Virus record (IMG/VR): IMGVR_UViG_3300021400_000468 | Span: 36,469-100,468 of that record | Length of the DNA: 64,000 nt | DNA from: a virus | Lineage: Duplodnaviria; Caudoviricetes | Strand: one strand, 5' to 3' | Part shown: one piece after another, positions 25,402-50,646 of the stretch | How the letters are laid out: each line of letters begins with the position of its first letter | Numbering within the stretch: the first letter of the stretch is position 1 | Made by a program: the position numbers and the translations under genes | Notes under the pieces: model-generated | Seen by the model: the letters and a program-made list of their open reading frames with translations, nothing else | The model's database searches: none | What the model was told of the DNA's origin: nothing

Positions 25402-27210
25402 TTAGTTCTTTTTGCCGTTGTTACGACGGCTGTTTTCCTTCTTGATCATGCCGTCGCGGTGTGCTTCCGCAGAGTCGCGATCCGTTCTGCTGTCGGCGTT
25501 GTAAGCCTTCTGGAACATCTGGCGTCTCTGATAGGCCGTATCCTTCTTGGTGGCCTTCTTCACGTCATCGACGCAGAGGCGGTACAGAGCATCGATGTAG
25601 GCCTCGGACTTACCGTCAAGACGGATGCCGGGGCGGACCTTCTTGATGATCTTCTTCTTCGCCGTGGGAATGGGCTGATACTCCAGACCATCAAGGTTCA
25701 GACGGGAACCGATCTTGGCGATTTCCATCCGCTTGCGAAGCTGCTTCTGGACGATGGCATCGATGGAATCCTGATTCATGCGGGAAGGGATGCAGTCATC
25801 GTCACCATCTTCCTCGAATTCCTCTTCTTCCTCGTCATCTTCATCCTCGGCGATTTCCTCATCATCGCCGGACTTGGGCGGGAAGGGAGCGGGAGCATCG
25901 GTATCCTCGTCTTCGTCCTCTTCGAACTCCTCTTCTTCCTCATCCTCATCTTCAACGATGTCTTCGTCTTCGTCATCGTCGGAATCGCAGTTTGCCTTAT
26001 CCTCGCAATCCGCTCCGTCCTCGTTGGTTTCTTCGGGATCATCCTCTTCATCGGAATCGGCCTGAGCTTCGGCACGGTCTTCATCTGTGAGGTTGGGCTT
26101 GGCGGCGGCTTCCTCCTTGCTGTTGGCAGGGATGGGATCGGTATCCGCATCGGTATTTCCGGAACCACCCTTACCACCAAAATCTCTCTCGGCAAGCAGG
26201 GTGTCGATGAGGTCATACAGGAAATCGAGGTCCTCGTCCTGTTCGGCAATCTGCTCCATTGCGCCGTTCATGTCTTCAGGATCACCCTTCTCATCTCTGA
26301 GATCACGGCGGTTCTTCACGGCCTGAAGTTTCTCATCCACGGGTTTGGACTGATCGGGAAGCGCAGGAGCTTCCTGCTCGGGCTTGGGGAGGCTATCCTT
26401 CTTAACGGGAACGGCTTTAGGATTTTCGACAGCCGGTTCCTTCGTGGGAACTTCCTCCTGAGGCTTAACGACTTCCTGGTCGGCCAGCTTAGCGGCCTTG
26501 GCCTCGGAATCATCCTCATCGGTCTTTGCAGCCGCACGTCTCGCCTTGTAATCCGCAATGGCTTTCTGAAGCTCTTCCTGACTCAGAATGCTGTCATTGT
26601 GAATCGCAGACTTCTTAGCGGCTTTTCTCTTTGCCATAGTCTTGTGTCCTCCTGTCATAATGGTTTTATCGGCCCGGCTGTCGATATTGAGCCGCGCCTG
26701 ATCACCTGCCCTTGCTTCCCGTACAACGGCAAGATGATTCACTCTAATATTGCGCTGAATGGCATCATACTTCTGCCCATTCCACACACCCGGCGTTTCC
26801 TCAAGGTCGAGGTTATAGCCGAGGGATAGTTCCTTATAACGGCACTCTTTCAGCGCATCGGTATCATGGATGACGATTTCTGCCCGAACATCGTCTCCAT
26901 CCTTTTCCCCTTCGGTCAGGATCGTGCCGATCTGATTGTCGTGGACGTTATCCGTATTGATCAGGCCAGCATCATGCGTAATGACGATTGGCTTGCCTTT
27001 ATACGACGCCAGACTTTCTGGATCAAACACATCCTCCGGAAGCCGAAGCTCCCGTCTTGTTGTACCGTCGGAGTTCTTATATTCAAAAATACCGGTGGAG
27101 GTCAGGATGGGCTTATCCTTCAAATACCCCTCTTCGGTATAATTGGCGCGAAATGCAGGAAAGCTGTCCAATCTGGTAACATGAACCAGCTTCATAGGTT
27201 TTTCACTCAT
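25402..27210 (-). CDS. Prohead protease-scaffold fusion (DUF2213-like) with long acidic region
   Basis: TEEGYL, GKPIVITH, ELSLGY and NHLAVVREARAG motifs; Asp/Glu-rich C-terminal half. Confidence 0.85.
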   Translation of the reverse strand: MSEKPMKLVHVTRLDSFPAFRANYTEEGYLKDKPILTSTGIFEYKNSDGTTRRELRLPEDVFDPESLASYKGKPIVITHDAGLINTDNVHDNQIGTILTEGEKDGDDVRAEIVIHDTDALKECRYKELSLGYNLDLEETPGVWNGQKYDAIQRNIRVNHLAVVREARAGDQARLNIDSRADKTIMTGGHKTMAKRKAAKKSAIHNDSILSQEELQKAIADYKARRAAAKTDEDDSEAKAAKLADQEVVKPQEEVPTKEPAVENPKAVPVKKDSLPKPEQEAPALPDQSKPVDEKLQAVKNRRDLRDEKGDPEDMNGAMEQIAEQDEDLDFLYDLIDTLLAERDFGGKGGSGNTDADTDPIPANSKEEAAAKPNLTDEDRAEAQADSDEEDDPEETNEDGADCEDKANCDSDDDEDEDIVEDEDEEEEEFEEDEDEDTDAPAPFPPKSGDDEEIAEDEDDEEEEEFEEDGDDDCIPSRMNQDSIDAIVQKQLRKRMEIAKIGSRLNLDGLEYQPIPTAKKKIIKKVRPGIRLDGKSEAYIDALYRLCVDDVKKATKKDTAYQRRQMFQKAYNADSRTDRDSAEAHRDGMIKKENSRRNNGKKN

Positions 27211-27874: not shown

Positions 27875-27909
27875 GGCAAGCCTCCCGGTTTTTGAAAGCA
27901 AAACGGCAT

Positions 27910-27933
27910 AAAAAAAGCGCACTTCCGTGCGCT
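27910..27933 (-). terminator. Intrinsic terminator closing the GNAT-like cassette
   Basis: agcgcac-ggaa-gtgcgct followed by a T run on the minus strand. Confidence 0.7.
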
Positions 27934-28027
27934 CTATATTCTGTTGTGGTCTGGATCATTCCCTACCGGAGCCGATAATCAACAACTTTATTATTCATCC
28001 TCCCTCCAAGCACTCCACACAGAGAAA

Positions 28028-28318
28028 TCAATAGCTCATCATCATGTTATAGCCCACGGCGGAAGCCTCGGCTTTGCAAGCAGCCTCAAACGTCATGTGT
28101 CCACACTTCCGCTGATAACTTTCCTCATCCTTCCACAGGGCGGCAAAATCATCATAGGCGATATTGACATATTCTTCCGCTTCTTCGGTTTTGAGGTACG
28201 CCTTGGCTCGCTCTTCCGTACCCTCCCATGCAGACCTCAGAAACGCATCTTCACAAAGCTCTCTGAACTCTTCACGGGTAATGGGCAGTTCACCGCGACT
28301 GTTTCCTTTTCCGCTCAT
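28028..28318 (-). CDS. Small acidic protein, putative immunity/antitoxin
   Basis: 96 aa, ATGA-coupled to the upstream effector gene. Confidence 0.55.
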   Translation of the reverse strand: MSGKGNSRGELPITREEFRELCEDAFLRSAWEGTEERAKAYLKTEEAEEYVNIAYDDFAALWKDEESYQRKCGHMTFEAACKAEASAVGYNMMMSY

Positions 28319-29169
28319 CTTCCTACCTCTTTGTCTCTTTCCGAATAAGCCGTGTCATAATCAGCGCTGTAAGGAATATTCTTCCGAACATCAGCCAAGG
28401 TCTGGTTCTTCACATTCCCGATCCCGACATATTTGTAGAAGATGATATCTTCTCTGCTATCCCGGTCGGGATTCCATCCCTGTGCTTTCGCACTGTCCTC
28501 ATATGCGGAATCCCATTGACACCGGCTCACCGCTTCAAAACCATTCCGGGCATAAAACTGGTGGTTGCCCTCATAGCTGTCCAACTTGGTTCCGCCGTTC
28601 TTAACAGCGTAGGCCAGAATATCATGCCCTCTGAGCATCCCGCCCTTGCCGTCTCCGGGGCCGACACAGACTGCAACTATATCCCCATTGTCAATGGCAA
28701 TGGTGCTTCCCCCATCCGTAATGTGCATCCGGGCATTGGGATGCCAGTCAGCCATCTCCTGACTGCTCATGGAGCTTACGCGCCACGCATTTTCCGGATT
28801 CTGGGATTTCTTCGCTGCCGCCAGTTTCTTGGTGAAGGTCTTTCTGCTTCCTGCGGTATTGAACTTCACCTTGTTCGATCCGGGATTCCCACTTTCGGAG
28901 TAGAAATCAGACGGGCTTTTGCCGGTTTTCTCTTTCAAGGCATCCCACGCATCCTGAGGGGTGGAGCCTTTCGGAAGGTTGATTCCAAACTTCTTACACA
29001 GACCGAACGCCAACCGCTGACTGGCGTCATACCGGGTCGCTCCATCCATATTATACACCTTATTACGGCTTTTGTCAAACCCGTCCGACAACTTTTTCTC
29101 ATCGGCGTTTAGCCGGGAAACGAGACGTTGATACCGGCGATTTCGATACTCCAGAATTTTGCTGTTCAA
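28315..29169 (-). CDS. Head-associated protein with C-terminal GNAT-like domain
   Basis: G..IL..AVKNGGTKLD.Y....FYARNGF resembles GNAT motifs A/B; N-terminal KILEY..RR..RL. Confidence 0.55.
   Translation of the reverse strand: MNSKILEYRNRRYQRLVSRLNADEKKLSDGFDKSRNKVYNMDGATRYDASQRLAFGLCKKFGINLPKGSTPQDAWDALKEKTGKSPSDFYSESGNPGSNKVKFNTAGSRKTFTKKLAAAKKSQNPENAWRVSSMSSQEMADWHPNARMHITDGGSTIAIDNGDIVAVCVGPGDGKGGMLRGHDILAYAVKNGGTKLDSYEGNHQFYARNGFEAVSRCQWDSAYEDSAKAQGWNPDRDSREDIIFYKYVGIGNVKNQTLADVRKNIPYSADYDTAYSERDKEVGR
29050..29078 (-). promoter_or_regulatory. Intragenic sigmaA consensus promoter
   Basis: TTGACA-aaagccgtaataaggtg(17)-TATAAT. Confidence 0.8.
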
Positions 29170-30127
29170 TGATCTTACCCCTCAACTTTTCCTCTGAACC
29201 TTCACTTACAGGCAGGTTCACCGTATCCTGATCAAATACAGGGATCGCCATGCAGCGACAACAAAAATCCTCGCCGGGATGACAAAACCGCCCGGTATAA
29301 ACCTTCCCTCTGGATTTGGTCATATACCAGCTCGGAGGAGGATCGTCCCATGAAAAGATCTTACCGTTATATTCACGGTGACTTTCTCTGACCCGGCTAT
29401 CATTTCTGGACTTCCATCTATAATGGGTACATCCGGCGTCGGTCTGCTGCTTCCGTGTAATCTGGGAGCAAAGAGTTCCCATCTGGTCTATTGCAAGGGA
29501 CTTGGCTTTTCGCTTCGACACTCCGAAGGACCTGACAATTTCATTCCGGATCTTGGTAATGCCCCAGCCCTCATAATAACCGTTCTGTATGATCTGGCGC
29601 ATGGTGGCAAGTGATTCCTCGGGTATGGATCGAACATAGCCAACATTCTCTTCGGTCCAACGGTCGATCAAATCCCCCCATGTTCCCTTGTTGTAGTAAT
29701 GACCATCAAGATCAACGCCGAAGGTTTTTTTGATGAGGTTTTTCCACTGTCGGACGTTGGTACCGTTTGCCCGCTTAGCCACCTTGCGGATGAAGACATC
29801 GGTCTTGAAATCATCCAGTTTTTCAGCAAGCTCTCTTTCCATCTTCCTGATGGTCTTGCTGAAATGTTCCGTAAAGCTGAGAATCCGGGCGTCCTCACGG
29901 ACCTCGGAGGAATCAACCCGGCTTTCACGAAAAATCTGAATGATTTCAGGAAGATGTTCCTTTATGATATCACGGGCCATATTCGCATGGCGCATAGCCA
30001 CGGAAGCATACTCCCTTTCTGCGGATTCAGGATACAAAAGAGTCCCTTGAACTCTTTTACCTCTTGTGAGGCCGGAGGAGCCTCTGTGGGCGTTTTTCCA
30101 AACCGGAACAGGTATTTTATCAGCCAT
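29099..30127 (-). CDS. MuF/SPP1 gp7-like minor head protein (no toxin extension)
   Basis: YRW....DSRVR.SH....GKIFSWDDPP...HPGEDFCCRC.A.P. Confidence 0.85.
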   Translation of the reverse strand: MADKIPVPVWKNAHRGSSGLTRGKRVQGTLLYPESAEREYASVAMRHANMARDIIKEHLPEIIQIFRESRVDSSEVREDARILSFTEHFSKTIRKMERELAEKLDDFKTDVFIRKVAKRANGTNVRQWKNLIKKTFGVDLDGHYYNKGTWGDLIDRWTEENVGYVRSIPEESLATMRQIIQNGYYEGWGITKIRNEIVRSFGVSKRKAKSLAIDQMGTLCSQITRKQQTDAGCTHYRWKSRNDSRVRESHREYNGKIFSWDDPPPSWYMTKSRGKVYTGRFCHPGEDFCCRCMAIPVFDQDTVNLPVSEGSEEKLRGKIIEQQNSGVSKSPVSTSRFPAKRR

Positions 30128-30219
30128 GCACAAAACCCTCCGAAAACATCCTTCTCGCTCCTCTCTAATACATCTGGGAATAAACGCCGTCCCTCAACCC
30201 TTATCCGAAACTATCGGAA

Positions 30220-30256
30220 CGAAAAAAAGGACACTTTCAACGGCGTCCTTTTTTCG
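30220..30256. terminator. Intrinsic terminator closing the zeta-toxin cassette
   Basis: aaaaaaggac...gtcctttttt inverted repeat. Confidence 0.7.
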
Positions 30257-30264
30257 TCTCTGAT

Positions 30265-30519
30265 TCAGGTATCGGATTCCATCATCTCGAAGGTAACGGG
30301 AAAGAGAATCTTTCCGTACTGACTGATCATCTTCTCTTCTTCCGCTTTCTTCTGCTTCATGAGGCGGTCATAGAACCACTGTTCAACCTCGCCCCATTCT
30401 CCGCCGGATTCGCTGGGATCATCCCCTTCATTTACGCAGCGGATAATGCGGTTGTGCCACTTGGCATCCTTCTCGCAGAACTCACTCCAGATCTTGGGAT
30501 CGACTTTTTCGTTTTCCAT
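30265..30519 (-). CDS. Small acidic protein, putative antitoxin/immunity
   Basis: AAGGAGG RBS at the zeta stop codon; 84 aa. Confidence 0.55.
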   Translation of the reverse strand: MENEKVDPKIWSEFCEKDAKWHNRIIRCVNEGDDPSESGGEWGEVEQWFYDRLMKQKKAEEEKMISQYGKILFPVTFEMMESDT

Positions 30520-30529
30520 GCTTTCCTCC

Positions 30530-31921
30530 TTAGTCATGGATTTCAACCTCACCCTTGTCGTTAATCACATAACGACCGGGTGTACGGCTCTTGTCAAGAA
30601 ATGCTCTGAGCTTATCCTTATCCACGGCGGTAATGGGCTTTCCTCCACCACCGGTGGCAATCAGAACAGGCTCGGATCCCATCGGGCCGCTGTTGTCATA
30701 CAGGCTGAACTCATCAAAATACTGAGCACACGCAACCGATGTATCGGTAACGGCTCCATGAATCTTTCTGACTTCATCCTCGGCAACAAGGCGGGGCGGA
30801 ACCTTACTTCTACCGGCTTCGTATTCAGCCTTGGCATGTTCATACCGACCCTGATTTCTCTTGAGAGCTTCTTCAATATCAAGGGTCATGTAGGAACCCA
30901 CCGCTCTGCACCCTGCGGCATGAGCCTGATCAATCTTCTTCTTCAGGCTCTTTACGCTTCCGTCGCCAGTTCCATCATAAACCGCATTCAAACCGGAATC
31001 CAGCGTTGCGGAATACAGGGACTTGGCAAGACCAGAGCTTTCCTCGTGATAATACCCGGCAGCTTTGGTGGACTTGGAAGCCATATCCTCATAACCGGGA
31101 AGCGCGGCTTTCATCTCATCCGGGTCAATTCCCACGCAGGAATTTTCGGGAAGAGCTTTTTCAGCCATCTTTCTCAGCCTTGACTTACCGGAAGCAGGTC
31201 CGCCGCCGAGAATCGTAACGACCCTCTGTCCTTCGGGCTGAGGAATCTTCCCTTCCAACTTATCACGGATAATCTCTCTGTGAACCTCCTGACGCTCTCT
31301 CGTGAAGTTTCCGTTCTTATCCAGATACTTCTTCGCGGAGTTGGGCTTGGTCTCGGTTCGGCAGTCATCGGCATTCACCGGCTTGCTCGAAATGCTCTCC
31401 CTACTAAGAGGAGTCCCGACCTTAACCGGAGAGGTCTTTCCCTGCTTCGCCCCGGAAGCGGTACTTCCAACACCAGCGGAAGCCCCGGAAGAACCGGAAG
31501 ATCCGGAAGAACTCTTCTTACTCTCAGCGTTCTTCTTGGCCTCGGCCTTGACCTCCTTGATATTCTTTCCGGTCATGGCATTAGGACCGGCGACCACTTC
31601 ACCCTCTTCATTCAAGGCAAAGTGCTTGCCGTTCTTCGTGGTTCTCCACTGGACGTCTTCGCCGTTTACCTGATCGGCATCAAACCGGCTTCCCGCCCCG
31701 CTATTATTATACCACATTTCGCCACGTTTGTCAATAGGAAGTTTATTGAAATCCCTATTTATTTCCGGGAGATTACGTTTGGCAAGCCGCTTGTTTCTGC
31801 GGTTATAAAACGCATCCACACTATCGGTGCGGACTTCCCCATCTCCAGACAGCCCGCGCTTGGCAAGTCTGGCATCCCGACGCTTCTTGTATTCGAGGAT
31901 TTTCTTGCGGTCATTCTGCAT
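30530..31921 (-). CDS. Head-associated protein with C-terminal zeta-toxin-like P-loop kinase
   Basis: LGGGPASGKS, IDPDEMK, HEESS, DGTG and LYDNSG motifs. Confidence 0.8.
   Translation of the reverse strand: MQNDRKKILEYKKRRDARLAKRGLSGDGEVRTDSVDAFYNRRNKRLAKRNLPEINRDFNKLPIDKRGEMWYNNSGAGSRFDADQVNGEDVQWRTTKNGKHFALNEEGEVVAGPNAMTGKNIKEVKAEAKKNAESKKSSSGSSGSSGASAGVGSTASGAKQGKTSPVKVGTPLSRESISSKPVNADDCRTETKPNSAKKYLDKNGNFTRERQEVHREIIRDKLEGKIPQPEGQRVVTILGGGPASGKSRLRKMAEKALPENSCVGIDPDEMKAALPGYEDMASKSTKAAGYYHEESSGLAKSLYSATLDSGLNAVYDGTGDGSVKSLKKKIDQAHAAGCRAVGSYMTLDIEEALKRNQGRYEHAKAEYEAGRSKVPPRLVAEDEVRKIHGAVTDTSVACAQYFDEFSLYDNSGPMGSEPVLIATGGGGKPITAVDKDKLRAFLDKSRTPGRYVINDKGEVEIHD
31706..31734 (-). promoter_or_regulatory. 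Intragenic sigmaA consensus promoter (extended -10)
   Basis: TTGACA-aacgtggcgaaatgtgg(17)-TATAAT. Confidence 0.8.
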
Positions 31922-31984
31922 GGCTACACCCCATTCTCAAGGCCCCAAAACAGGCTTGTTTTTTCCTTCCATTTTAGATTAAAA

Positions 31985-32180
31985 TATACAGTACAGTAAC
32001 AGATACAGTACAGTACAGATACAGTAAAAAAGGGATTTTTTCGATACCGTATCCATACCCTATCGACACGGTATCCTTGATGTACCTCAAACCCAACAGG
32101 GACAACGGACAGAGACACTTTGATAAAAATAGTTTATTCATTAAAGCTGTTTTAGGATACGGTATCCATACCCTATCGAA
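31985..32180. repeat. Iteron-like 11-bp repeats plus TACAG(T/A) short repeats (origin-like)
   Basis: Five GATA(C/G)(C/G)GT(A/G)T units at 32043-32075 and 32156-32179; TACAG array at 31987-32025 beside AT-rich DNA. Confidence 0.6.
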
Positions 32181-32292
32181 AAACAGCCCAAATTCACTCT
32201 CTCTTTGTAGAAAAATCGATGTAGTTAAAGATTGTTCACAGATTATTCATCCAGATCAAGAGTAGTTTAATGTTAAACTATTCGGATTGGAC

Positions 32293-32325
32293 ATGAGAAA
32301 AGGGCGATTTCTCGCCCCATCTCAT
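32293..32325 (-). terminator. Intrinsic terminator closing the portal-toxin cassette
   Basis: gggcga-gaaa-tcgccc-tttt on the minus strand. Confidence 0.65.
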
Positions 32326-32340
32326 CTTCATTTTTGACCA

Positions 32341-32598
32341 TTACTCGGAATCGGAGTCACCTTCATCCGGGATGATCTCAATGTCCTTGATCTCATCTTC
32401 CCAGAGGACAAGCCCCATATCATCATCGTCAAGAGAAACCATGATCGAAGAAAACGCACCGTCCTCACGGTCACAGTCGCCCCTGCCCTCATACTCATCC
32501 ACAAAACACTTGATTGTCTTTCCGTCTGTGGTCTTGATCACAGCATGATGATCAGTGGCATGCCACATGAGATTGTCGATTTCCTTGCCCTTATCCAT
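32341..32598 (-). CDS. Small acidic protein, putative immunity protein
   Basis: 85 aa, overlaps the portal-fusion stop by 8 nt. Confidence 0.6.
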   Translation of the reverse strand: MDKGKEIDNLMWHATDHHAVIKTTDGKTIKCFVDEYEGRGDCDREDGAFSSIMVSLDDDDMGLVLWEDEIKDIEIIPDEGDSDSE

Positions 32599-35377
32599 TC
32601 TTACCCTCTGCTTTCGCTTTTTCTTCTTTCGCCTTTTCGTCCAACGCTTCCTTCAACCTCTGTTTATAATCCTTCGGTTTGGCGGGGACGAAATGACAGC
32701 CATCTTTTGCATAATGCACCGTCATACGATCCGTTTTAAGCCAGCAATCATGATCCCGATCATAGAAACGTCCAACAATCTTGCCAGCCGAGATGGTTTC
32801 CCGATAACAGGTATTACTGTCCGGCTTTCCATATGAAACACCATTTCCGTGATTTTGACTCAATATACTCTGAAGCTCTTTATCACTTACCGTGGTGTAG
32901 CTCGGAGGATTCCCATCTTTAATGCGCTGGTTATATTCGGCAGAGTCTTTCCTGTGAGGATTCTGCTTCTTCTTGTTCAGCCTATCGCTCACTATGCCAG
33001 ACGCAATTACGTAATCAAGCTGCTTGGACGGAATCTTTACGGGAGGATCATCCTGATATGATGGCGAACCTTTATTTGAAGATCCTCCTACCGATCCAGG
33101 TCTACCTCCATGTCCGAAGTTCCCGCTTCCGGGGCCTCCATCCATACTTATTATACCACCTTCTTCGTCAATTGTCAATATCTCAGACAACTTTTCAAAC
33201 AAAAGGTTCATGGATATTTTGAAGGGGCCAAACAGGTTATGACTGAATATATCGGGGATGGTACGGAACCGCTGATTATCCATTTCAAAATCGGCGGTAA
33301 TCATCTCACCCTCATACTCAGTGCAGAAGAACACAGCGGGAATAAGACCAGTATCCTCTTCAAAATCACCAAGACCGATCAACTTCAGGTTCAAGGGGGT
33401 AATGCCAAACTCTTCCTGCGTTTCCCGGACCGCAGCATCAGTTAGAGATTCACCGGGTTCCACATGACCACCGGGACCACAGAGCTGACCGAAGTGATCG
33501 ATATCCTTTCTGGTTCCGGTCAGGATCTTCATCTGCTTAAGATTCAGGACGAACACACCGACCGAACGGATACGTCGGAGAATGTCATCGTCCAACCACT
33601 CCTCGCTGGTCACATCTTCGACGGGATGGACAAGATCGGATTCGACAGCAGGAGAATCATCCTGTGATCCAGAGGCATCGTCTTCATGATCAGGTTCTTC
33701 TTCCTGATCAACCTCTTCTTGTACAGCCTCTTCTACCTGCTCAACCTCTTCCTGATCCTGCGGGAGTTTGGTAGCTTCGGGGGCGGATTCGGGGGCATTG
33801 CCGTATTCGGCATAATCATCGAAGTCGCCCTGTTCCATGAGATGACCGTCACCCTGAGCGGGTTGAGGAGCGACGCCCATCTGCGGAGCGGCACCTCCCA
33901 TGGCTTCCATACCGCCCATGCCACCTTCACCACCCTCTGCTCCCTGCTGACCCTGCGGTGCGCTTTCCATAAGCTCTTCTTCAGACATATCGTCGAGCAT
34001 GGATTCCACATCAAGATCATCGGGTTTGCCGAGGCCAACACGGACTTCTTTAGGATCGAGGACTTCCATACCGACATAGGTATTGGCAATGTTGGCACGG
34101 GTAAGCTCGTTCTGGAGCTTGGAGGATTCAAGCTGAACCTCTTCCGTCTCGGACATGGACCAAAGCGGATTGAAGGAAACTTTGAACTCCGGAACCTTCT
34201 CCACTTCCCCGGTATGCAGACCCGCCGCAAAAATCACGGAAAGCAGATACCGAAGGTTGGAGCGGAGCATCCTCTTCTGGATCCGTTCCACATAGTTATA
34301 GTAGTTCTCAAAGTCACTTTCACCGGTGGCATTCATACCGGCGGGAGAACGACCAAACAGAATGGTTTGGGGAATTGAGGTAATGGCCGAAAGCCAATTG
34401 CAAGAGGCATCGATTACTTCTTGCACTCCGGTGAATCCAAACGTCTGGAAGCTGTAATCCTCACCCTCTGCATCAATCGTAATGGAATTCAGAAGTCCGC
34501 GCGCAGTATCAATGGCCTCCAGTCTGCGGAGGACCTTATCCTCACCCTCTTCGGTTGCCAACAGGGCGGCGAGGTCCTTCATCCGATATACGGGTTGGAC
34601 GGATTTGGAAAGCATCTTCGGGGCGCTCTCATGGGCTACCTCGGCATTGCGGATGGCGCGGTTAATCCGGACGTATTCCGGAATGCCCCAAAGCCTGTAA
34701 TTCTCATAGCTGGTGTTCAGCGGAAGCATTCCGTTTCTGAACGCCAGCACACGGCTGTCATGAACCCAGAAATGCCCCCCGGTAATGGGATTGTTAATTT
34801 CATACCATTCCGGCGTACCGAGTCTGCTTCCGCGAGTTTGAAACGGATCGTTGGGTTCATGGTCGTATATCGAGGCATAATCCGGATTGATACAGGAGCG
34901 GTCAAAAACAAGGATATCATCAATGGACCGGATCCTCTTCCAGTCCAGCGGCTCTTCAAGGCCATGACCATCGTTGATGAGCATAATGGCGAGGGAACCG
35001 CCGAAAAGCCGCGCCCACTTGATTCCGGTCATTGCCACTTCTTCCCAATCAAGCTCGTCAAGGGCAGATTGGTAGAATTCAATCAGGTCCTTATCTTCAA
35101 CATCATCCAGTTCAAAACCATGCTTGACGGCTTCTTCAGCGGGAGTGTCTATGATCTTGGCAAACAGGCCGTTGTTCTCGTAGAACATCTCCAGAAGCAT
35201 ATCATCCACTACCGGTTCAGGCTGATAACGGTAGGCTTCGGTATCGTCCTTTTTGGTTCCGTACCGATTGACCATATTGACATAGCCGTCAAACCGATGA
35301 AGGGGAATCGCATTCCCGGTCTGCTTGCGCAGGACGTTTTCATATCTGCGCATATCGAATGCCATATCTCTATCCAC
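32591..35377 (-). CDS. Portal protein (DUF1073-like) fused to a Nudix hydrolase and a C-terminal Ntox50-like toxin domain
   Basis: KIIDTPAEE, WARLFGG, IPQTILFGRSPAGMNATGESD; Nudix box GGHVEPGESLTDAAVRETQEEFG; KQNPH...GKIVG...TVHYAKDGCHFVP. Confidence 0.85.
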   Translation of the reverse strand: MDRDMAFDMRRYENVLRKQTGNAIPLHRFDGYVNMVNRYGTKKDDTEAYRYQPEPVVDDMLLEMFYENNGLFAKIIDTPAEEAVKHGFELDDVEDKDLIEFYQSALDELDWEEVAMTGIKWARLFGGSLAIMLINDGHGLEEPLDWKRIRSIDDILVFDRSCINPDYASIYDHEPNDPFQTRGSRLGTPEWYEINNPITGGHFWVHDSRVLAFRNGMLPLNTSYENYRLWGIPEYVRINRAIRNAEVAHESAPKMLSKSVQPVYRMKDLAALLATEEGEDKVLRRLEAIDTARGLLNSITIDAEGEDYSFQTFGFTGVQEVIDASCNWLSAITSIPQTILFGRSPAGMNATGESDFENYYNYVERIQKRMLRSNLRYLLSVIFAAGLHTGEVEKVPEFKVSFNPLWSMSETEEVQLESSKLQNELTRANIANTYVGMEVLDPKEVRVGLGKPDDLDVESMLDDMSEEELMESAPQGQQGAEGGEGGMGGMEAMGGAAPQMGVAPQPAQGDGHLMEQGDFDDYAEYGNAPESAPEATKLPQDQEEVEQVEEAVQEEVDQEEEPDHEDDASGSQDDSPAVESDLVHPVEDVTSEEWLDDDILRRIRSVGVFVLNLKQMKILTGTRKDIDHFGQLCGPGGHVEPGESLTDAAVRETQEEFGITPLNLKLIGLGDFEEDTGLIPAVFFCTEYEGEMITADFEMDNQRFRTIPDIFSHNLFGPFKISMNLLFEKLSEILTIDEEGGIISMDGGPGSGNFGHGGRPGSVGGSSNKGSPSYQDDPPVKIPSKQLDYVIASGIVSDRLNKKKQNPHRKDSAEYNQRIKDGNPPSYTTVSDKELQSILSQNHGNGVSYGKPDSNTCYRETISAGKIVGRFYDRDHDCWLKTDRMTVHYAKDGCHFVPAKPKDYKQRLKEALDEKAKEEKAKAEGKNG
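33150..33178 (-). promoter_or_regulatory. Intragenic sigmaA consensus promoter (extended -10)
   Basis: TTGACA-attgacgaagaaggtgg(17)-TATAAT. Confidence 0.8.
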
Positions 35378-35395: not shown

Positions 35396-36805
35396 TTACA
35401 GAAGATTATTGATGTTAAACTGCGCCCTCAATTCTACTTCCGCAAAGCCATTCGCGGAGGCATCCACCATATCCTTGAACTTCCATTCCGGGAAGTTCTC
35501 AAGCTGCTCCAGATATGCCTCATTCCAGTCTGCATGAAGAATATCGAAATTTCCGGCTTGCCACTGAGCTGCCATAGGCTCTGCCCGGGACTCCTTACTT
35601 CCGGATTCAGAAACCGCCGTAACATCAAAACCGGACAACAGCTTTATGTATGACTGCGCCTGTTCCTTTCCGGCCTGACCGGGGTCCTGCGGCAACCTGA
35701 TCCGAACACGTTTGAACTCGGCCCTGTCCTTCTGTGCCGTGAGACGGATTGTCTGGCGCACATCGGAAGCAGCCATCTGTTTATTGATAACGTCCGCTAC
35801 AAGGTAACGTCCGTTTTTTCTCTTTCCTATCAACACCCCGGCTGTATACGCCGCGTCCCCGTTCTCATCCTTTTCGGTGGCGGCAAGGTCCCAGCATCTC
35901 ACCCACTGGATCACATCATTCGGAATGACCTCAAGAATATTGCCAAGCTGTGTGCGCTTGAAATACAGACCGGCACTCGGCTTGATCTTCCAGTTTCCGT
36001 AAAGAAGACGCTCCCTTTCCACAATGGACAGGGATTTCAGGTTTGCCAGATAGCTTGGGTTGACCTTCAGGAGTTCCTTATTGTCATAGATTGAAGAGGC
36101 AATAAAGGTAACGGATTTCGGCTCTTCCCTCTCTTCCGTGGTTTTGAGGTCGAACTGCTTCCACAACTCCGTTCGGCTGTCGGCCCAATACAGTTGCTCG
36201 TCACGACGGATGAACCACCTCTTGACGCCGCTTCTTTCCTGAATGGCATAACCGGAATCCTGATCAATCCACCACGAAATAAACTCCGCGACCCATGAAT
36301 TGGCGTCCGGGTTGCAAGTGGCGCGAACAAAGGGCTTTACGCCGCAGGTACTACGGTTACGGGACAGCATGTAGAAAAACTGACGCTCAGAAAAATGGGT
36401 AAGCTCATCCCAACAGATTTCCGCTATCTGCGAACCCTGCCAATTATGGACGGCATCATCTCTGTCCAAGTGGGCGAACTTTACTCTTCCGAGAATTTCC
36501 CCCTCCGGACTTCTGAACATCCACGACCCATCGCCGCCTCTCTTCTCGGCTCCGGGAATACTGTGGTATATCTTGTCGGCTTCATCCCAAAGACCGCCTT
36601 GGCTGAAGATCTGATTGTAGTTCTTACGAAAGATGGTACAGGTAAACCCCGGAACGTTTTTGTACCGCAGGGGAGTAAGCAAAAGGCCGTAGCTCTTCCC
36701 TCCACCGGCGGAACCGCCATAAATGCAGATGTCAGCGCTTGTGGCAAGAAATCGTTCCTGCGGTCCGGGCTGAGGCTTGATAATCATTGTTTCTTTTCCA
36801 GCCAT
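35396..36805 (-). CDS. terL: Terminase large subunit
   Basis: PQPGPQ, YGGSAGGGKS Walker A, WDELTHF Walker B, WDLA and DMVDA nuclease motifs. Confidence 0.92.
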   Translation of the reverse strand: MAGKETMIIKPQPGPQERFLATSADICIYGGSAGGGKSYGLLLTPLRYKNVPGFTCTIFRKNYNQIFSQGGLWDEADKIYHSIPGAEKRGGDGSWMFRSPEGEILGRVKFAHLDRDDAVHNWQGSQIAEICWDELTHFSERQFFYMLSRNRSTCGVKPFVRATCNPDANSWVAEFISWWIDQDSGYAIQERSGVKRWFIRRDEQLYWADSRTELWKQFDLKTTEEREEPKSVTFIASSIYDNKELLKVNPSYLANLKSLSIVERERLLYGNWKIKPSAGLYFKRTQLGNILEVIPNDVIQWVRCWDLAATEKDENGDAAYTAGVLIGKRKNGRYLVADVINKQMAASDVRQTIRLTAQKDRAEFKRVRIRLPQDPGQAGKEQAQSYIKLLSGFDVTAVSESGSKESRAEPMAAQWQAGNFDILHADWNEAYLEQLENFPEWKFKDMVDASANGFAEVELRAQFNINNLL

Positions 36806-37234: not shown

Positions 37235-37924
37235 TTACTTGATCGCTAACCATCCGGCGAAGTTCAGGTATCTCCAGAAGCAGTCCACTTTGGAGAATCC
37301 GGTGGTGCGAAGAAGGTCCTCATTCCAATGGGCGGTAATGGGAACCAAAACACCCTCAAGGCTTTTCCGCTTCGCGGCGATCTGTTCCTGCGTATACAGG
37401 TTGTCTGCCTTGATCTGGTAGTATTCGGTCACGAGAACGTCATCAATCTCGTCGGTATTGCCGAGGACCTTTTCCACCATAATCAAAGCACCACCGGGAA
37501 CCAGCCGGTCATAGGCACTCCGGACAATCTTCTGACGGTATTCTATCGGCGTGAACTGAAGCGTCAGAATGCTGAGAATCAGACTGCATTCAACTTCCGG
37601 AAGACCCTTCGTAATATCATACAGCCTTGCATCAATATAACCGAACCTCTTCTTCAGTTCCTCAATCATAGGCTCGCTTACATCAAGACACACATAACCG
37701 AAATCGTCTCCAAACTTCCGGACAAACGGAGCAATGGCATTTCCATTACTGCACCCGATATCCATGATGGTTGTATTCGGCTTCAGGTAATGACATCCGA
37801 TCTTTGTGACCAGCTCCCGCATATCGTTATATCCGGGAATGGAACGCTCCAGCATTTCATCGAAACAGTCAGTCACTTCCTGATCAAATTTCCATTTTCC
37901 ATCGGGCATGACCTGATCCTTCAT
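37235..37924 (-). CDS. cmoA: CmoA-like carboxy-S-adenosylmethionine synthase
   Basis: WKFD.EV...FDEM..RSIPGY, DIGCS.G, LTLQF, EK and AKRKSL motifs, matching E. coli CmoA. Confidence 0.8.
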   Translation of the reverse strand: MKDQVMPDGKWKFDQEVTDCFDEMLERSIPGYNDMRELVTKIGCHYLKPNTTIMDIGCSNGNAIAPFVRKFGDDFGYVCLDVSEPMIEELKKRFGYIDARLYDITKGLPEVECSLILSILTLQFTPIEYRQKIVRSAYDRLVPGGALIMVEKVLGNTDEIDDVLVTEYYQIKADNLYTQEQIAAKRKSLEGVLVPITAHWNEDLLRTTGFSKVDCFWRYLNFAGWLAIK

Positions 37925-38769
37925 TTCTTCAACTCCTTCGCAATGTCATTGTACACGCCAATAATGGCCTTATGCTTCTTCGGATTGTATTTGCTTGCTA
38001 ACAACCTATCATGACATTCCCTCAATCGAGAATTTATCTGATAGCTATGGTCGGTCTGGTCACGATAATATGCCCCCTTCTTATAGTAGTCATCAAACGC
38101 CTTGATGCTGGCATATTTCGGAACAGGTTTATTGATCGCCGCAAGGGAGAACTGCCCAATATAATCGAAGATGGCTGGGGTATTGTAAAAGTCCGTGTTC
38201 TTCTTTCCAAACTGTCCGGCATAACGAGCGATATTCCCAGCGGAAAAATCCAGATCATCGCTGTAGCACTTCCGATATTTGGCTACGGCCTGATCTCCCC
38301 CATCATGAAACGCAACCTGCACCTTCCTCTGGGTACAGAAAAGGTCATCTCCACCGATCCCTGTAATTATATGATTTTCATCCATACGCGCATAAATATA
38401 CTTCCACGGAATCATGCACTGAATGATGGTCTTTTTTACGAGATGACAATACGGAATGACCTCCCGGATATCCCGGTACATTCTATCCACATCGGAAGGA
38501 ACACAGATTTCAGTCAACTCAAACCCAAAATCTTTTGCCAGCTTTCTGGATGATTTCAGATCTGCGGACAAAATGCCATCCATATAGAAGGTATAACAGT
38601 GAGGCTTCCGTCCGGTCTCCAACATGGAAAACAGAACCGTTATGGAATCCGTTCCGCCGCTCAACGCAAGGGCGGAAGTCCCATCCGGATCTATCTCCTT
38701 CACACGGTCAAGGCAGATTTGCCTAAACTTATCCGCGTCCTCACGCGAGAAATGCGTTTTCCATTCCAT
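37921..38769 (-). CDS. Asparagine-synthetase-like ATP-dependent amide ligase (synthetase domain only)
   Basis: PP-loop LSGGTDS and TGIGGDDLF; no N-terminal glutaminase domain. Confidence 0.75.
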   Translation of the reverse strand: MEWKTHFSREDADKFRQICLDRVKEIDPDGTSALALSGGTDSITVLFSMLETGRKPHCYTFYMDGILSADLKSSRKLAKDFGFELTEICVPSDVDRMYRDIREVIPYCHLVKKTIIQCMIPWKYIYARMDENHIITGIGGDDLFCTQRKVQVAFHDGGDQAVAKYRKCYSDDLDFSAGNIARYAGQFGKKNTDFYNTPAIFDYIGQFSLAAINKPVPKYASIKAFDDYYKKGAYYRDQTDHSYQINSRLRECHDRLLASKYNPKKHKAIIGVYNDIAKELKK

Positions 38770-39613
38770 CTTGTTTCAGCCTTTCGCTCAATTCCTCGGC
38801 GGCTACCGCATCTGCCGTAGCTACACCATACAGATAAACCACACCCAGCAGACATTTTCCCCTGTGATGATCGAGCTGAATGAAATCATGCTCTCTCTGA
38901 TCGTAAGGAAATTCCTCATGGTAATGTGCCTTGATCTGGTCGGTATAATCGGTATAGCTCGGTCGGCAATACCTGAACGATTCATCAAGATAATACCCGC
39001 AGTCCAAAGCCACAATCAGCTTCGGCCCCCACAGCTTATCAGCACCAATGCTCTCGGCCTTATCGCAGGTGGATACACAGGTAACCACCACATCGCACTC
39101 ATTGAGGAGCTGCATGGTATCACTGGTATCAACAGATACATTGCGGCAGACGGACATAAAATCGCCCACGTTCTTCGCATAATTGCGAGGGGATCCGCGC
39201 ACGACAATATCCTCAACCCCAAACGCTTTCTGGATCGCTATGCAGTTGGCGAGGTTGGTTCTTCCGGTTCCGATAAAGCCGACCTTATGTACTTCACCAA
39301 CATTCATTAACCGAATAGCAAGAGCTGTCATGGCGCCGCAGCGATATCTGGTCAGACCGGCATCGAAAAAACGTAGAGTCTTATGACCGTCATGAATATC
39401 GATGATCTCACTGGTCTCTCCACTCTCATCATCGATGGAGATCACCTTTTCTACTAAATTGCCCTTGACGGTTTTTGCGGACATATAGGTATCGGTTTCA
39501 ACAGCAACGCCGGAATCGTTCCTACGGCTTACATTCACTGATTTGGGATCGCAAAGGGAATCTGCGGTTCCGATCTTTGCGCTCCAATATTCATTGACAA
39601 ACCTTGAAAGCAT
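38741..39613 (-). CDS. Ornithine cyclodeaminase/mu-crystallin-like protein
   Basis: DAGLTRYRCGA..ALA followed by Rossmann VGFIGTG; DVVVTC. Confidence 0.65.
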   Translation of the reverse strand: MLSRFVNEYWSAKIGTADSLCDPKSVNVSRRNDSGVAVETDTYMSAKTVKGNLVEKVISIDDESGETSEIIDIHDGHKTLRFFDAGLTRYRCGAMTALAIRLMNVGEVHKVGFIGTGRTNLANCIAIQKAFGVEDIVVRGSPRNYAKNVGDFMSVCRNVSVDTSDTMQLLNECDVVVTCVSTCDKAESIGADKLWGPKLIVALDCGYYLDESFRYCRPSYTDYTDQIKAHYHEEFPYDQREHDFIQLDHHRGKCLLGVVYLYGVATADAVAAEELSERLKQDGMENAFLA

Positions 39614-39616
39614 GAC

Positions 39617-40714
39617 TTACTTTCCTATCTTATCCAGAATCTCAGTCTGTATGGTTTTGGAGATATGCATCATCATAACAGGGGGAACCATCCTTCCCGC
39701 TCTTTCCCACTTCTGACGGAAATCGCCGGTCAGTTTGAAATCATCGGGAAGGGACGTAATCCTCTTCAGTTCTTCAATGGTGAACTTCCGATCCTCCAGC
39801 GGGTGCATGTTTCCAGCAGAACTTAACGCGCCGCTCGAAGCCAGAACAGTGGAGCACGGGCAATACATGGATTCTCTGGAAAGATTGAACCATGAGCCGT
39901 TCATAACACTGGATCCCTTAACCGGACGCGGAGGATTCTTCGGGAGCTTTTTCAAGATCTGGGCCAGCTTCGTGGACTTGATCCCCTCGCGAAGCATATC
40001 GGCTTCTTCACGGTTATAGCTTACACCTTCAAAGGCATCTTTCAGCGTATAGTAATACGGAAGCGGTTTCGGGAAAACCGGATCCATATTCAGATCATTT
40101 CTCACCCCTACAAAAATGACACGCTCACGAGCCTGTGGAACACCAAGCCACTTTGAATTAAGAAGCTGTGCCTTGGCACGATATCCGCAGTTCTTCATAT
40201 CATTCAGGAAGATCTTGAAATACCCGATTGCGGTTCCCTTCACAAGACCGCTTACATTCTCGGCAACGAAGCACTTGGGCTGAAGATCATTCAGGAGACG
40301 GATATACTCGTAAAACAGGGTTTCAATCTGTTGGACCTTCCCATCGGAATAGTCACGTTCCTTCCCCCAGCCCTTCTCTCTTTTACCGGCAGTAGAAAAC
40401 GCACAACAGGGCGGAGACCCATCAAACAGATCAAGCTCTCCCTGCTTCAGTCCGGTACGGTCGAATATATCCTGTGCCTTGACCTGACGAATATCTCTCG
40501 TATCCAGATAGGCATCCGGATGGTTCATGCGGTATGTTCTCTGAGCTTCTTCCACAAACTCATTGGCCCATACGACATGATATCCTGCCATGCGATAACC
40601 GAGGCAGGAACCACCACCGCCGCTGAAGGTCGAAACGACTTTATATCCATTCCACGGAATCGCTTCGATCTCCTCCATGCTCGGCACTTTATAGGGGGGC
40701 TTAGTTCCACTCAT
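39617..40714 (-). CDS. C5-cytosine DNA methyltransferase homologue, probable carboxymethyltransferase
   Basis: FSGGGG (I), GSPPC (IV), ENV (VI), QARER (VIII); motif X reads GRMVPP instead of GN(A/S)VP. Confidence 0.85.
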   Translation of the reverse strand: MSGTKPPYKVPSMEEIEAIPWNGYKVVSTFSGGGGSCLGYRMAGYHVVWANEFVEEAQRTYRMNHPDAYLDTRDIRQVKAQDIFDRTGLKQGELDLFDGSPPCCAFSTAGKREKGWGKERDYSDGKVQQIETLFYEYIRLLNDLQPKCFVAENVSGLVKGTAIGYFKIFLNDMKNCGYRAKAQLLNSKWLGVPQARERVIFVGVRNDLNMDPVFPKPLPYYYTLKDAFEGVSYNREEADMLREGIKSTKLAQILKKLPKNPPRPVKGSSVMNGSWFNLSRESMYCPCSTVLASSGALSSAGNMHPLEDRKFTIEELKRITSLPDDFKLTGDFRQKWERAGRMVPPVMMMHISKTIQTEILDKIGK

Positions 40715-41201
40715 ATCCACACTCCGGACAAATCCATTTTACTGCCATCTCTTCCGTGAACTCCTTGAACTCGGGCGGAACCTCATCCTCTTCAACCTCC
40801 GGGGGTTCCTCTTCCGGATCATAATCCGCAGAATCACCGTCAAGGGAAGAGAAATCAAGGTCAAATCCCTCGAAGTCAAGCCCTTCCCGGTCGGTTTCCA
40901 GAAGCTCATAATCCCACGGGCTTTCATTGGTCTTGTTATCAACGATCCGAAGCTCTCGGATTTCCTCTTCCGTCAGGTTATCGGCGACCACGCAGGGGAC
41001 TTCATTCATCCCCAAATACTTAGCGGCCTGAAAACGGCATTCACCGATGACGATCTCTCCATCAACAGTAATTACGATAGGCTGCCGGAACCCATACCTC
41101 TGAATGGAGTTGGCAACATTCTTAATCTGCCTGTTGTCATGTATCTTCGCGTTCTTGCTGTACCCATGCAAGAAGCTAATGGACTTCATCTCAATTTTCA
41201 T
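40701..41201 (-). CDS. ParB/sulfiredoxin-like protein with C-terminal CxxC
   Basis: NAKIH, SIQRYGFRQPIV, LRIVDNK, CPECG. Confidence 0.8.
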   Translation of the reverse strand: MKIEMKSISFLHGYSKNAKIHDNRQIKNVANSIQRYGFRQPIVITVDGEIVIGECRFQAAKYLGMNEVPCVVADNLTEEEIRELRIVDNKTNESPWDYELLETDREGLDFEGFDLDFSSLDGDSADYDPEEEPPEVEEDEVPPEFKEFTEEMAVKWICPECGYEWN

Positions 41202-41677
41202 TTGCCAAGCCTCCGCGCAATCGCTCCACACCGAGGGCATCTGCACACCTCTTCGGTTTTTTCTGCCGGTTCCTTCTTCTCCTTCGGCTGAACATCGCCC
41301 GGATCCTCAAACAGATCATCGAACATAGGCTCAAAACCGTCAAAACCAAGATCGCTGATATCATCCTTCAGGACTGCATAATCCCATGGACTTTCGTTCA
41401 GCTTATTGTCTACGATCCGAAGCTCCTGAATCTCCTCATCGGTAAGATCATCCGCATAGGTAACAGGAACGGTTTCAAGACCGAGGCGCTTTGCCGCAAG
41501 CAGTCGGCAATGACCGATGATTACGACGTTGTTTGCATCCACAACAAGAGGCTGACGCCAGCCAAAACGCTTAATGGAATTGGCTACGTTAGACACCTGC
41601 ATCTCACTATGGATCTTGGCGTTCATATCGTAAGGTATCAGATCGGACACCTTTACTTCCTTAACAACAATTGACAC
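41198..41677 (-). CDS. ParB/sulfiredoxin-like protein with C-terminal CxxC (paralogue)
   Basis: NAKIH, FGWRQPLVVD, GHCRLLAAK, LRIVDNK, CPRCG. Confidence 0.8.
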   Translation of the reverse strand: MSIVVKEVKVSDLIPYDMNAKIHSEMQVSNVANSIKRFGWRQPLVVDANNVVIIGHCRLLAAKRLGLETVPVTYADDLTDEEIQELRIVDNKLNESPWDYAVLKDDISDLGFDGFEPMFDDLFEDPGDVQPKEKKEPAEKTEEVCRCPRCGAIARRLGK

Positions 41678-41696
41678 GATTGACCTCCCCTGTCTT

Positions 41697-43564: not shown

Positions 43565-43593
43565 ATTATATCATATATCTCGACAATTGTCAA
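43565..43593 (-). promoter_or_regulatory. sigmaA consensus promoter
   Basis: TTGACA-attgtcgagatatatga-TATAAT. Confidence 0.8.
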
Positions 43594-44299: not shown

Positions 44300-44328
44300 A
44301 TTATACCACACAGCCGGACATTTGTCAA
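44300..44328 (-). promoter_or_regulatory. sigmaA consensus promoter
   Basis: TTGACA-aatgtccggctgtgtgg-TATAAT. Confidence 0.75.
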
Positions 44329-46100: not shown

Positions 46101-46129
46101 ATTATATCACATTGCACGACGTTTGTCAA
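46101..46129 (-). promoter_or_regulatory. sigmaA consensus promoter
   Basis: TTGACA-aacgtcgtgcaatgtga-TATAAT. Confidence 0.8.
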
Positions 46130-46958: not shown

Positions 46959-46987
46959 ATTATATCACATTTCTCGACGTTTGTCAA
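46959..46987 (-). promoter_or_regulatory. sigmaA consensus promoter
   Basis: TTGACA-aacgtcgagaaatgtga-TATAAT. Confidence 0.8.
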
Positions 46988-50594: not shown

Positions 50595-50646
50595 CCCCCA
50601 AAGCCATTTTTCTGTCCAAAAATTCATTTTTCTTTACGGAAAAGTG

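Follow-up and report, generated by a model that had tools for sequence, protein, structure and literature searches.

Three consensus promoters are embedded in the coding sequence of head-module genes of a tailed phage, and they have been kept there through changes of both reading frame and encoded peptide. They lie in a window of 64,000 nucleotides, bases 36469-100468 of the 100,468-bp IMG/VR record IMGVR_UViG_3300021400_000468, which is rated complete. The genes in question encode a portal protein fused to NUDIX and Ntox50 domains, a zeta-type kinase and a GNAT-fold enzyme, and each is followed by a small acidic open reading frame (ORF) and an intrinsic terminator. As a whole, the arrangement is probably best explained, with moderate confidence on our part, by head-borne effector/antidote cassettes with internal promoters for the antidotes, carried by a phage of gut Clostridia. 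The present analysis shows how the cassettes are built, that their promoter DNA is under selection and that they are mobile, and a model supports one toxin-antidote contact. The embedded promoters, the most interesting element observed, are the following:

33150-33178, minus strand: promoter P1, exact TTGACA-N17-TATAAT with a TGn extended -10; encodes LTIDEEGGII between the NUDIX domain and the linker
31706-31734, minus strand: promoter P2, exact TTGACA-N17-TATAAT with a TGTGG extended -10; encodes IDKRGEMWYN in a disordered linker
29050-29078, minus strand: promoter P3, exact TTGACA-N17-TATAAT, no extended -10; encodes FDKSRNKVYN in a disordered linker

A first-pass annotation had pointed out these three exact promoters within the portal, zeta and GNAT-like genes, the peptides they encode and the in-frame ATG codons that come 4 nt after the -10 in the portal gene and 0 nt after it in the GNAT gene; all were confirmed, at these coordinates. 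The exact TTGACA-N17-TATAAT is found 9 times in the window, against 0.00 expected from shuffles, and 19 times in the whole genome, 18 of them on the gene strand. According to a codon-usage gene map, the remaining 16 of the 19 sites are all intergenic and only P1-P3 are intragenic; these three are also the only exact sites within the structural block of ~42 kb. The density here is 3 exact sites per 5.3 kb, compared with 4 exact N17 sites in 789 kb, both strands included, of 56 further related loci (loci of relatives are given L numbers below). One of those four is the homologous site in L013 and another lies behind the portal stop codon of L097. An exact promoter with a 16-nt spacer was found inside the portal fusion of L093, just before the linker DGGPGSGNxGHxGRPGxxGGS. 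On the gene strand of the window there are 8 exact sites and zero 1-mismatch sites, so that promoter-like sites are either exact or absent, as expected of a used signal and not of a by-product.

A 38-nt core of P2 (31703-31740) also matches a contig of another element in two bovine gut metagenomes, at a depth of ~440 and 96 for that element versus ~9 and 5 for the phage. This type of promoter sequence is thus also in use elsewhere in the same community.

Selection on the promoter DNA was apparent from comparisons with the relatives. Exact promoters occur at homologous places in the close-homologue contigs L009, L010, L011 and L013. When five leader modules (zeta and a RelA/SpoT homologue (RSH)-like paralogue, with proteins 40-66% identical) were aligned by codon, hexamer bases were invariant at 11 of 12 positions versus 116 of 369 elsewhere (p 4e-5), and third-codon positions at 4/4 within the hexamers versus 8/119 outside them (p ~5e-5). 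These modules differ in both the 17-nt spacer and the encoded peptide. Furthermore, the homologous GNAT leaders of L009 and L013 contain the exact promoter in another reading frame, encoding LTT..DII instead of FDK..YN, and the portal genes of the window and of L009 share its position to the nucleotide (2200) but not its spacer, and 7 of the 10 encoded residues differ. The promoter-coded residues have a predicted local distance difference test (pLDDT) value below 50 in both AlphaFold2 (AF2) models (GNAT aa 25-51, zeta aa 54-80), and distant GNAT homologues do without the promoter-coding stretch. Because the hexamers are kept while peptide and frame change and the linker is disordered, a DNA signal is maintained where the protein tolerates it; judged by these alignments, the promoters are selected as DNA and not through the peptide. 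A function of the peptide as a protease site or conserved motif was considered and ruled out, since the peptide is not conserved.

The alignments also bear on the proposal that these sites are not promoters in vivo, and are by-products of a conserved peptide motif or of a travelling recombination or junction sequence. In fact, short similarities flank P1 and P3, GAAAAGTTGTC upstream and ATGGATGGAG downstream, the heptamer AAAGTTG is found also at insertion junctions, and promoter activity is predicted from the sequence. A by-product of either kind is nevertheless hard to reconcile with hexamer bases that are kept, including synonymous positions, where the peptide is not kept and the frame changes, or with the recurrence of the same exact consensus between genes, in front of small ORFs, in relatives. 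The proposal is therefore considered very improbable.

The cassettes and the gene between the second and the third are organized as follows, in the direction of transcription:

32591-35377, minus strand: portal fusion, 928 aa; Pfam Phage_portal_3 (PF06381) E 9e-71, NUDIX E 2e-13, Ntox50 E 6e-14 over the full model
32341-32598, minus strand: 85-aa acidic ORF, isoelectric point (pI) 4.1, candidate Ntox50 antidote; GAGGG Shine-Dalgarno, ATG overlapping the portal stop codon
32293-32325, minus strand: intrinsic terminator T1; hairpin and T-run, -19.8 kcal/mol, fold z-score -5.8
30530-31921, minus strand: zeta-toxin gene, 463 aa; Pfam Zeta_toxin (PF06414) E 6.5e-23
30265-30519, minus strand: 84-aa acidic ORF (ORF84), pI 4.6, candidate zeta antidote; AAGGAGG Shine-Dalgarno, orthologues in L009 and L010
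30212-30258, minus strand: intrinsic terminator T2; hairpin and T-run, -18 kcal/mol, fold z-score -4.4
29099-30133, minus strand: MuF minor head protein, no toxin extension; Pfam Phage_Mu_F E 7.5e-18, no other domain
28315-29169, minus strand: GNAT-fold gene, 284 aa (ORF284); no Pfam match, AF2 model with mean pLDDT 85
28028-28318, minus strand: 96-aa acidic ORF (ORF96), pI 4.7, candidate GNAT partner or antidote; ATG overlapping the GNAT stop codon (ATGA)
27903-27942, minus strand: intrinsic terminator T3; hairpin and T-run, fold z-score -2.8; the resident MuF terminator

In the portal fusion, the NUDIX domain (aa 602-699) is followed by the linker, here DGGPGSGNFGHGGRPG at ~aa 749-765, and then by an RNase-type Ntox50 toxin domain (aa 800-898). 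The same portal+NUDIX+Ntox50 architecture is present in L009, with at least two effector domains in one virion-gene polypeptide. The zeta protein begins with a helical leader (aa 1-58), which runs into the disordered linker (aa 54-80), a small beta module, a low-complexity spacer and the kinase (~aa 190-463); 40 homologues all share its Walker A motif GGGPASGK and further residues. The GNAT protein has a short leader (aa 1-29), a disordered linker (aa 25-51), a helical module and a GNAT-fold domain at ~aa 85-252. The fold was assigned by structure comparison, in which VIA-align placed 129/152 residues on 1yvk_A (Z 9.7, root-mean-square deviation 3.0) with GNATs in all 50 listed rows, and the top Foldseek matches were likewise all GNATs (E 0.02). 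Searches of the PDB by sequence with ORF284 and with its family profile gave nothing meaningful, only one chance-level helix-turn-helix (HTH) match to the leader (E 0.23).

Some details of the first-pass annotation had to be revised. It had put each promoter just before an xxD-[G/A] motif and the enzymatic domain. The motif is not a consistent feature; the portal promoter does stand ahead of the linker that precedes the toxin domain, and the zeta promoter is located in the conserved N-terminal leader, ~120-170 residues before the kinase domain instead of at a domain junction. Its three terminators were all found, with hairpin and T-run at 32301-32318, ~30219-30251 and 27914-27935, and the third, which it had given to the GNAT cassette, belongs to the resident MuF gene. 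MuF has indeed only the Phage_Mu_F domain in Pfam and thus carries no toxin extension, as claimed. The statement that three other carriers are used holds for the portal; the zeta and GNAT enzymes stand on their own, with an N-terminal leader in common.

The linker ahead of the C-terminal effector domain is near-invariant in the portal gene (32591-33130) and in L014-L040. In related phages it recurs in many fusions to the portal and also in head-module proteins that stand alone, at times in 2 copies per protein, and in several GC-rich relatives a 2-mismatch promoter-like site encoding PIDKS... is situated just upstream of it. A non-coding gap of 420 nt (31922-32340) separates the portal cassette from the zeta gene. 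It contains two copies of a 22-nt repeat, GATAGGGTATGGATACNGTATC, which are the only 2 in the whole genome, as well as consecutive repeats of the CTGTACTGTA type and, on the plus strand, a hairpin resembling a terminator (31940-31957), and it may be a late-promoter or regulator site. A conserved non-coding RNA in this gap was considered and rejected, as no convincing alignment was obtained between this gap and that of L009 and the repeat occurs only twice in the genome.

What the promoters serve was approached by comparing their positions. In a first arrangement, found in the window, L009, L010, L011, L013 and L093, the promoter lies in the leader or linker upstream of the enzyme domain. In a second, it stands between toxin gene and small ORF: in L063 an exact promoter comes after the zeta stop codon and before a 69-aa acidic ORF, behind which there is a hairpin with a T-run, and L009 and L010 have one directly before an 80-aa ORF behind an ADP-ribosyltransferase. 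In a third, the exact promoter comes directly behind the portal stop codon (L097). The small ORF is the element common to the first two arrangements, with a hairpin and T-run after it where checked. Since the promoter of some relatives lies between toxin gene and small ORF, the shared purpose appears to be separate transcription of the small ORF. Furthermore, no conserved in-frame Shine-Dalgarno start was found between promoter and enzyme domain in the 9 genes compared, and the ATG that abuts the -10 in the GNAT gene and the one that overlaps it in the L009 portal would both fall upstream of the transcription start. Given the lack of a conserved start and the small ORFs' own ribosome-binding sites, the predicted internal transcripts of ~0.85, 1.5 and 1.1 kb are read as mainly antidote mRNAs, and the promoter would probably uncouple antidote expression from late transcription.

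Alternatively, the internal transcripts could also give a leader-less or truncated enzyme, with the cassette doubling as a toxin-antitoxin (TA) or abortive-infection module in the lysogen, much as the first-pass annotation had proposed in its alternative of a prophage TA defence module. The Salmonella rhs internal promoters (PMC7043789) offer a precedent, the in-frame ATG of the portal gene could head a leaderless mRNA for linker and Ntox50, and a truncated product would explain why the promoter precedes the enzyme domain and is not placed immediately ahead of the small ORF. Such a module is disfavoured by the want of a conserved in-frame start in the 9 genes, by the ATG codons upstream of the transcription start in the GNAT gene and the L009 portal, and by the promoters that lie behind the toxin gene in L063, L009 and L010. 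It is regarded as distinctly improbable.

The small ORFs themselves behave as partners of the enzymes. Adjacent acidic ORFs of 84-96 aa had been predicted in the first pass, and the three now defined (85, 84 and 96 aa) have a pI of 4.1-4.7, good Shine-Dalgarno sequences and start codons that either overlap the stop codon of the gene before them or lie right next to it. Which small ORF is present goes with the kind of domain encoded upstream, to which it is translationally coupled. Between phages, the small ORFs after zeta are 68-83% identical (68-72% for the ORF84 orthologues of L009 and L010) and those after the RSH-like domain 55%. The 85-aa ORF matches phrog_1865 (E 1.5e-5) and is weakly similar to the same-position ORF of L009 (28% identity, E 0.005), and ORF96 is weakly similar to the same-position ORF of L063 (E 0.001). 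In homologue searches ORF96 gave 1 match, from a close homologue, and ORF84 gave 3 clusters. NCBIfam and PADLOC yielded no match for the small ORFs or the GNAT protein, the small ORFs were also without a Pfam match, and the matches in the ESM Atlas were unnamed viral clusters only. Among 52 GNAT homologues, every gene context read had a small ORF (78-90 aa in other phages) behind the GNAT gene, wherever in the genome that gene was located.

Complex modelling covered the zeta pair alone of the three pairs. The model of zeta aa 185-463 with ORF84 reached an ipSAE of 0.85 compared with 0.00 for the best control, a mark attained by 58/80 solved complexes and by 2/110 mismatched pairs. Contact agreement between runs was at least 83%, the partner had a pLDDT of at least 85, and the interface takes in residues 288, 292-293, 296, 317-319, 321, 325 and 377, which are invariant among 40 homologues. 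The model supports binding of the zeta domain to ORF84, and the small ORFs downstream of all three enzymes are candidate antidotes. The earlier suggestion of a multi-effector set in the head module with small partner genes is supported, with its promoters under selection, and the first-pass interpretation as a whole is supported in part.

From these elements a mechanism can be proposed, in which we infer promoter activity, the time of firing, toxicity of the domains and packaging into the virion. The head block would hold three polymorphic effector/antidote cassettes, with portal-fused Ntox50 (with NUDIX), the zeta-type kinase and the GNAT-fold enzyme as effectors. The portal would carry its toxin as a fusion, and the shared leader would presumably target the zeta and GNAT enzymes into the capsid. 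Full-length effectors would be made late, together with the head genes, and the small acidic ORF behind each enzyme gene would bind and block that enzyme. A consensus host sigma-A promoter in the disordered linker and a terminator would define an autonomous unit of ~0.85-1.5 kb, whose internal transcripts would yield mainly antidote, independent of late transcription. The antidote would be made in the lysogen, which it would protect from toxin that sibling or related virions inject, or else right after infection.

How the embedded promoters might be regulated is suggested by the 16 intergenic ones, which are found ahead of small-gene operons at genome 2.7-32 kb and 80-89 kb. These form a stereotyped element of ~100 nt, in which an A/T tract is followed by the core TTGACAAACGTCGAG...TGTGRTATAAT and by a conserved TCGTnnGGGG leader that is transcribed. 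In 14 of the 16, GTC at spacer positions 5-7 creates a palindrome, TTGAC-N4-GTCRA, over the -35; none of the three intragenic promoters has it (Fisher p 0.01), and it is also absent from the promoters found in the head modules of relatives. The palindrome is a candidate operator, and if it is one, the intragenic promoters would escape repression in the lysogen.

The palindrome promoters were mapped at 43565-43593, 44300-44328, 46101-46129 and 46959-46987 of the window and at 10 further sites between genome 2757 and 32267. They have a TRTG extended -10, and their leader TCGTnnGGGG..CCCC could form a 5' hairpin; they look like a distributed operator/promoter system, as in phage P1. The lysogeny module (50566-52779) has consensus promoters at 50566 (minus strand) and 52751 (plus strand), both without the early-promoter palindrome. 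A scan of IMG/VR for the early-promoter consensus returned 28 single scattered matches and no sister genome.

The resemblance to these early promoters raises the possibility that the internal promoters act only during infection, as early promoters silenced in the lysogen; the antidote would then be pre-loaded before the late toxin burst, or serve as a timer that ends a pulse of injected toxin. P1-P3 do match the core of the phage's early promoters, and 3 of 29 positions distinguish P2 from the early promoter at 46959. A temperate phage has to keep such promoters silent, with no sign that P1-P3 are exempt, and effectors delivered by the virion need to be neutralised for lysogeny or for use of the host machinery. 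On the other hand, the palindrome, the stereotyped A/T tract and the conserved leader, which mark 14/16 intergenic promoters, are found in 0/3 of the intragenic ones, and the head-module promoters of relatives likewise lack the early-promoter features. By their sequence features, then, the intragenic promoters look differently regulated, and restriction to infection is considered unlikely, though less so than the other two alternatives.

Several points weigh against antidote cassettes with their own switch. That a promoter within a translated gene would be active in an uncultured Clostridia host is an assumption based on the match to the consensus. Expressing the small ORF from a promoter 550-1150 nt ahead of it is an odd design, with a long untranslated leader, and the other 16 consensus promoters must somehow be silenced in the lysogen. 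Most of the 50 portal relatives are without an exact promoter, so that exact promoters are limited to a narrow clade. The GNAT partners are poorly conserved, and the score of the zeta-ORF84 model may owe part of its height to solved zeta-epsilon structures, with 5 rows in the partner alignment.

The cassettes are mobile. In L011, whose zeta protein is 97% identical, the T2 hairpin likewise follows the zeta pair, and MuF is followed directly by the same terminator T3, with no GNAT pair in between; T3 is thus common to a phage without the GNAT cassette. The insertion was delimited as:

~27990-29183, minus strand: GNAT gene-pair insertion relative to L011; pairwise DNA alignment with the junctions read by eye, AAAGTTG microhomology at the flanks

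The inserted ~1.2 kb comprises the whole GNAT pair, namely Shine-Dalgarno, leader, promoter, enzyme and partner, and in the alignment with L011 the 3' end of the MuF gene extends into it. In L009 and L013 the GNAT pair is found between TerL and portal, and L009 contains ~six cassettes. Cassettes are therefore gained and lost between near-identical phages, and relatives swap, add and lose them. The expected swapping of domain and small-ORF pairs was thus found; the unit exchanged is the whole gene pair with leader and promoter, and the promoter is not the point of exchange. A role of the promoter as a recombination junction was rejected on the same ground, and because paralogous leaders remain similar ~70 residues beyond the promoter.

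A leader beginning ILEYRxRRxxRL... heads the zeta and GNAT proteins of the window and the RSH-like proteins of relatives, and its first ~24 residues also match the N-terminus of the L009 ADP-ribosyltransferase. This shared leader is a candidate capsid-targeting signal. Homologues of the zeta domain are elsewhere fused to MuF, prohead proteases and portals. The motif (K)I(L/E)EYRxRRxxRL belongs to no Pfam family and was seen in L009 at positions 1346, 6400, 8001 and 10193. Behind the zeta pair of L009 (9633-10076) and L010 (3575-4018) there is a 147-aa ORF with a weak HD_4 match, which may be an Aph1-type alarmone hydrolase serving the neighbouring RSH-like toxin.

Parts of this system are already known, namely head-borne polymorphic toxins of phages, portal-effector fusions, and internal promoters of immunity genes in type VI secretion system (T6SS) and Rhs loci. 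MuF polymorphic toxins (Jamet et al. 2017, PMC5576092; Apk2 and Bxa, PMC12226406 and PMC11699363) occur in temperate Firmicutes phages, and their delivery with the injected DNA has been proposed. They resemble the cassettes described here in being head-module genes with swappable toxin domains, Ntox50 included, and small non-enzymatic immunity ORFs downstream. The C-terminal domains here are in fact shared with polymorphic-toxin families (Ntox50, Zeta_toxin), and relatives swap in RSH-like and ADP-ribosyltransferase domains behind the same leader. The difference is that no effector is fused to MuF, the carriers being the portal and a short helical leader; with MuF bare and the three effectors without a MuF match, the fusion of MuF to toxin that defines that class is absent. 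Further differences are the three cassettes in one phage, with up to ~six in relatives, and the consensus promoter inside the coding sequence of each. The word 'promoter' appears 0 times in PMC5576092 and PMC5512222, and in PMC12226406 and PMC11699363 only for expression vectors.

A further study describes polyvalent proteins (Iyer, Burroughs, Anand, de Souza and Aravind 2017, PMC5512222), among them fusions of RNase-type and other effector domains to portal or MuF, as well as NUDIX and GNAT beside InPase domains, and predicts their injection at infection. The portal+NUDIX+Ntox50 protein is alike in uniting several effector domains in one virion-associated polypeptide. The domains in PMC5512222 are treated as effectors of counter-defence or host takeover and are unpaired with antidotes, whereas here each has a coupled small partner and an internal promoter. 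A promoter inside an effector ORF that drives the immunity gene is known from tsiV1-3 of the Vibrio cholerae T6SS (Miyata et al. 2013, PMC3857813) and from the internal immunity-gene promoters of Salmonella rhs (PMC7043789). Those promoters free immunity expression from the delivery apparatus, so that non-firing cells are protected (PMC3857813, PMC7043789). The likeness, at the level of sequence, is that the effector ORF contains a promoter and the immunity gene lies downstream of it. The known cases are bacterial secretion effectors with non-consensus promoters found experimentally; those in the present phage capsid genes are exact consensus promoters kept across frame changes and recognized from sequence.

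In comparison with zeta/epsilon (PezT/PezA), the zeta P-loop kinase is alike, and the small acidic partner is predicted to sit on a face of invariant residues. The partner lies downstream here, whereas the epsilon/PezA antitoxin is upstream; it has no detectable similarity to epsilon/PezA, with no match in Pfam, NCBIfam or PADLOC, and the kinase here has a 190-aa leader and resides in a head operon. The GNAT toxins of TA systems (TacT, AtaT, ItaT) share the GNAT fold. They acetylate aminoacyl-tRNA and have a cognate antitoxin of the ribbon-helix-helix/DUF1778 type; the 96-aa partner of the GNAT gene has no family match in Pfam, phrog or NCBIfam.

Phage-borne polymorphic toxins are abundant in gut Firmicutes, and their immunity genes are in operons silent in lysogens. 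An autonomous promoter in each cassette would be a concrete and testable answer to the question of when immunity genes are expressed, and protection of a lysogen from the toxins of its own phage would become a question of promoter knockout. A wider reading, in which linker-embedded consensus promoters are a general rule of capsid toxin cassettes in gut Clostridia, stay unrepressed in the prophage and make the lysogen immune, is put forward tentatively, as possible and somewhat doubtful. If true, each mobile cassette would bring its own switch; lysogens would be constitutively immune to sibling virions and non-lysogens would be poisoned on injection. This would supply the missing expression mechanism for the model of phage toxins as inter-strain weapons, and a clean natural example of DNA selected both as promoter and as protein-coding sequence. 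As a clear case of dual coding, the cassettes show that mobile units inserted in frame into structural genes can bring their regulation with them. For annotators, strong promoters and terminators within the late operon of a phage can be real, and can flag effector/antidote pairs.

The minus strand carries 151 of the 158 genes of the codon-usage map. A tyrosine integrase (51436-52626, minus strand, Pfam E 5e-30) and a Cro/C1-type HTH gene (50709-51074, plus strand), beside divergent consensus promoters, indicate that the phage is temperate, and a role of the cassettes in lysogens is therefore possible. Portal relatives were found in metagenome-assembled genomes of Oscillospiraceae, Lachnospiraceae and other Clostridia, and bovine gut metagenomes contain near-identical DNA. 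No public RNA run containing this DNA was found, and two metatranscriptome runs from the probable source sample gave no match to it, an outcome that carries no information on expression. In the phage GenBank collection the closest match was a 64%-identical portal segment of Faecalibacterium phage FP_Brigit and nothing else, and a scan of viral contigs with the zeta protein gave no confirmed match.

The effector cassettes are encoded in the head/packaging module of this temperate tailed phage, as judged from the order TerL, portal, MuF, DUF2213. In full, TerL is followed by portal+NUDIX+Ntox50, the 85-aa ORF, a terminator, the 420-nt gap, leader+zeta, the 84-aa ORF and a terminator, and then by MuF, the leader+GNAT-fold protein, the 96-aa ORF, a terminator and DUF2213. 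The block starts with:

35396-36805, minus strand: large terminase; Pfam Terminase_6N E 6e-19, Terminase_6C E 3e-13

The DUF2213 protein (25402-27210, 602 aa) has an extremely acidic, low-complexity C-terminal half with long D/E runs and may be a scaffold. Between 58986 and 61857 there are 7-8 tRNA genes (Gln, Leu, 2x Met, Ile, Ser and Thr, with one more from Rfam alone at 61161-61239). Just upstream of the terminase genes, a block at 37235-42509 encodes an S-adenosylmethionine (SAM)-dependent methyltransferase, a C-5 cytosine DNA methylase and a protein with the N-terminal domain of S-adenosylmethionine synthetase, and is likely an anti-restriction or DNA-modification block.

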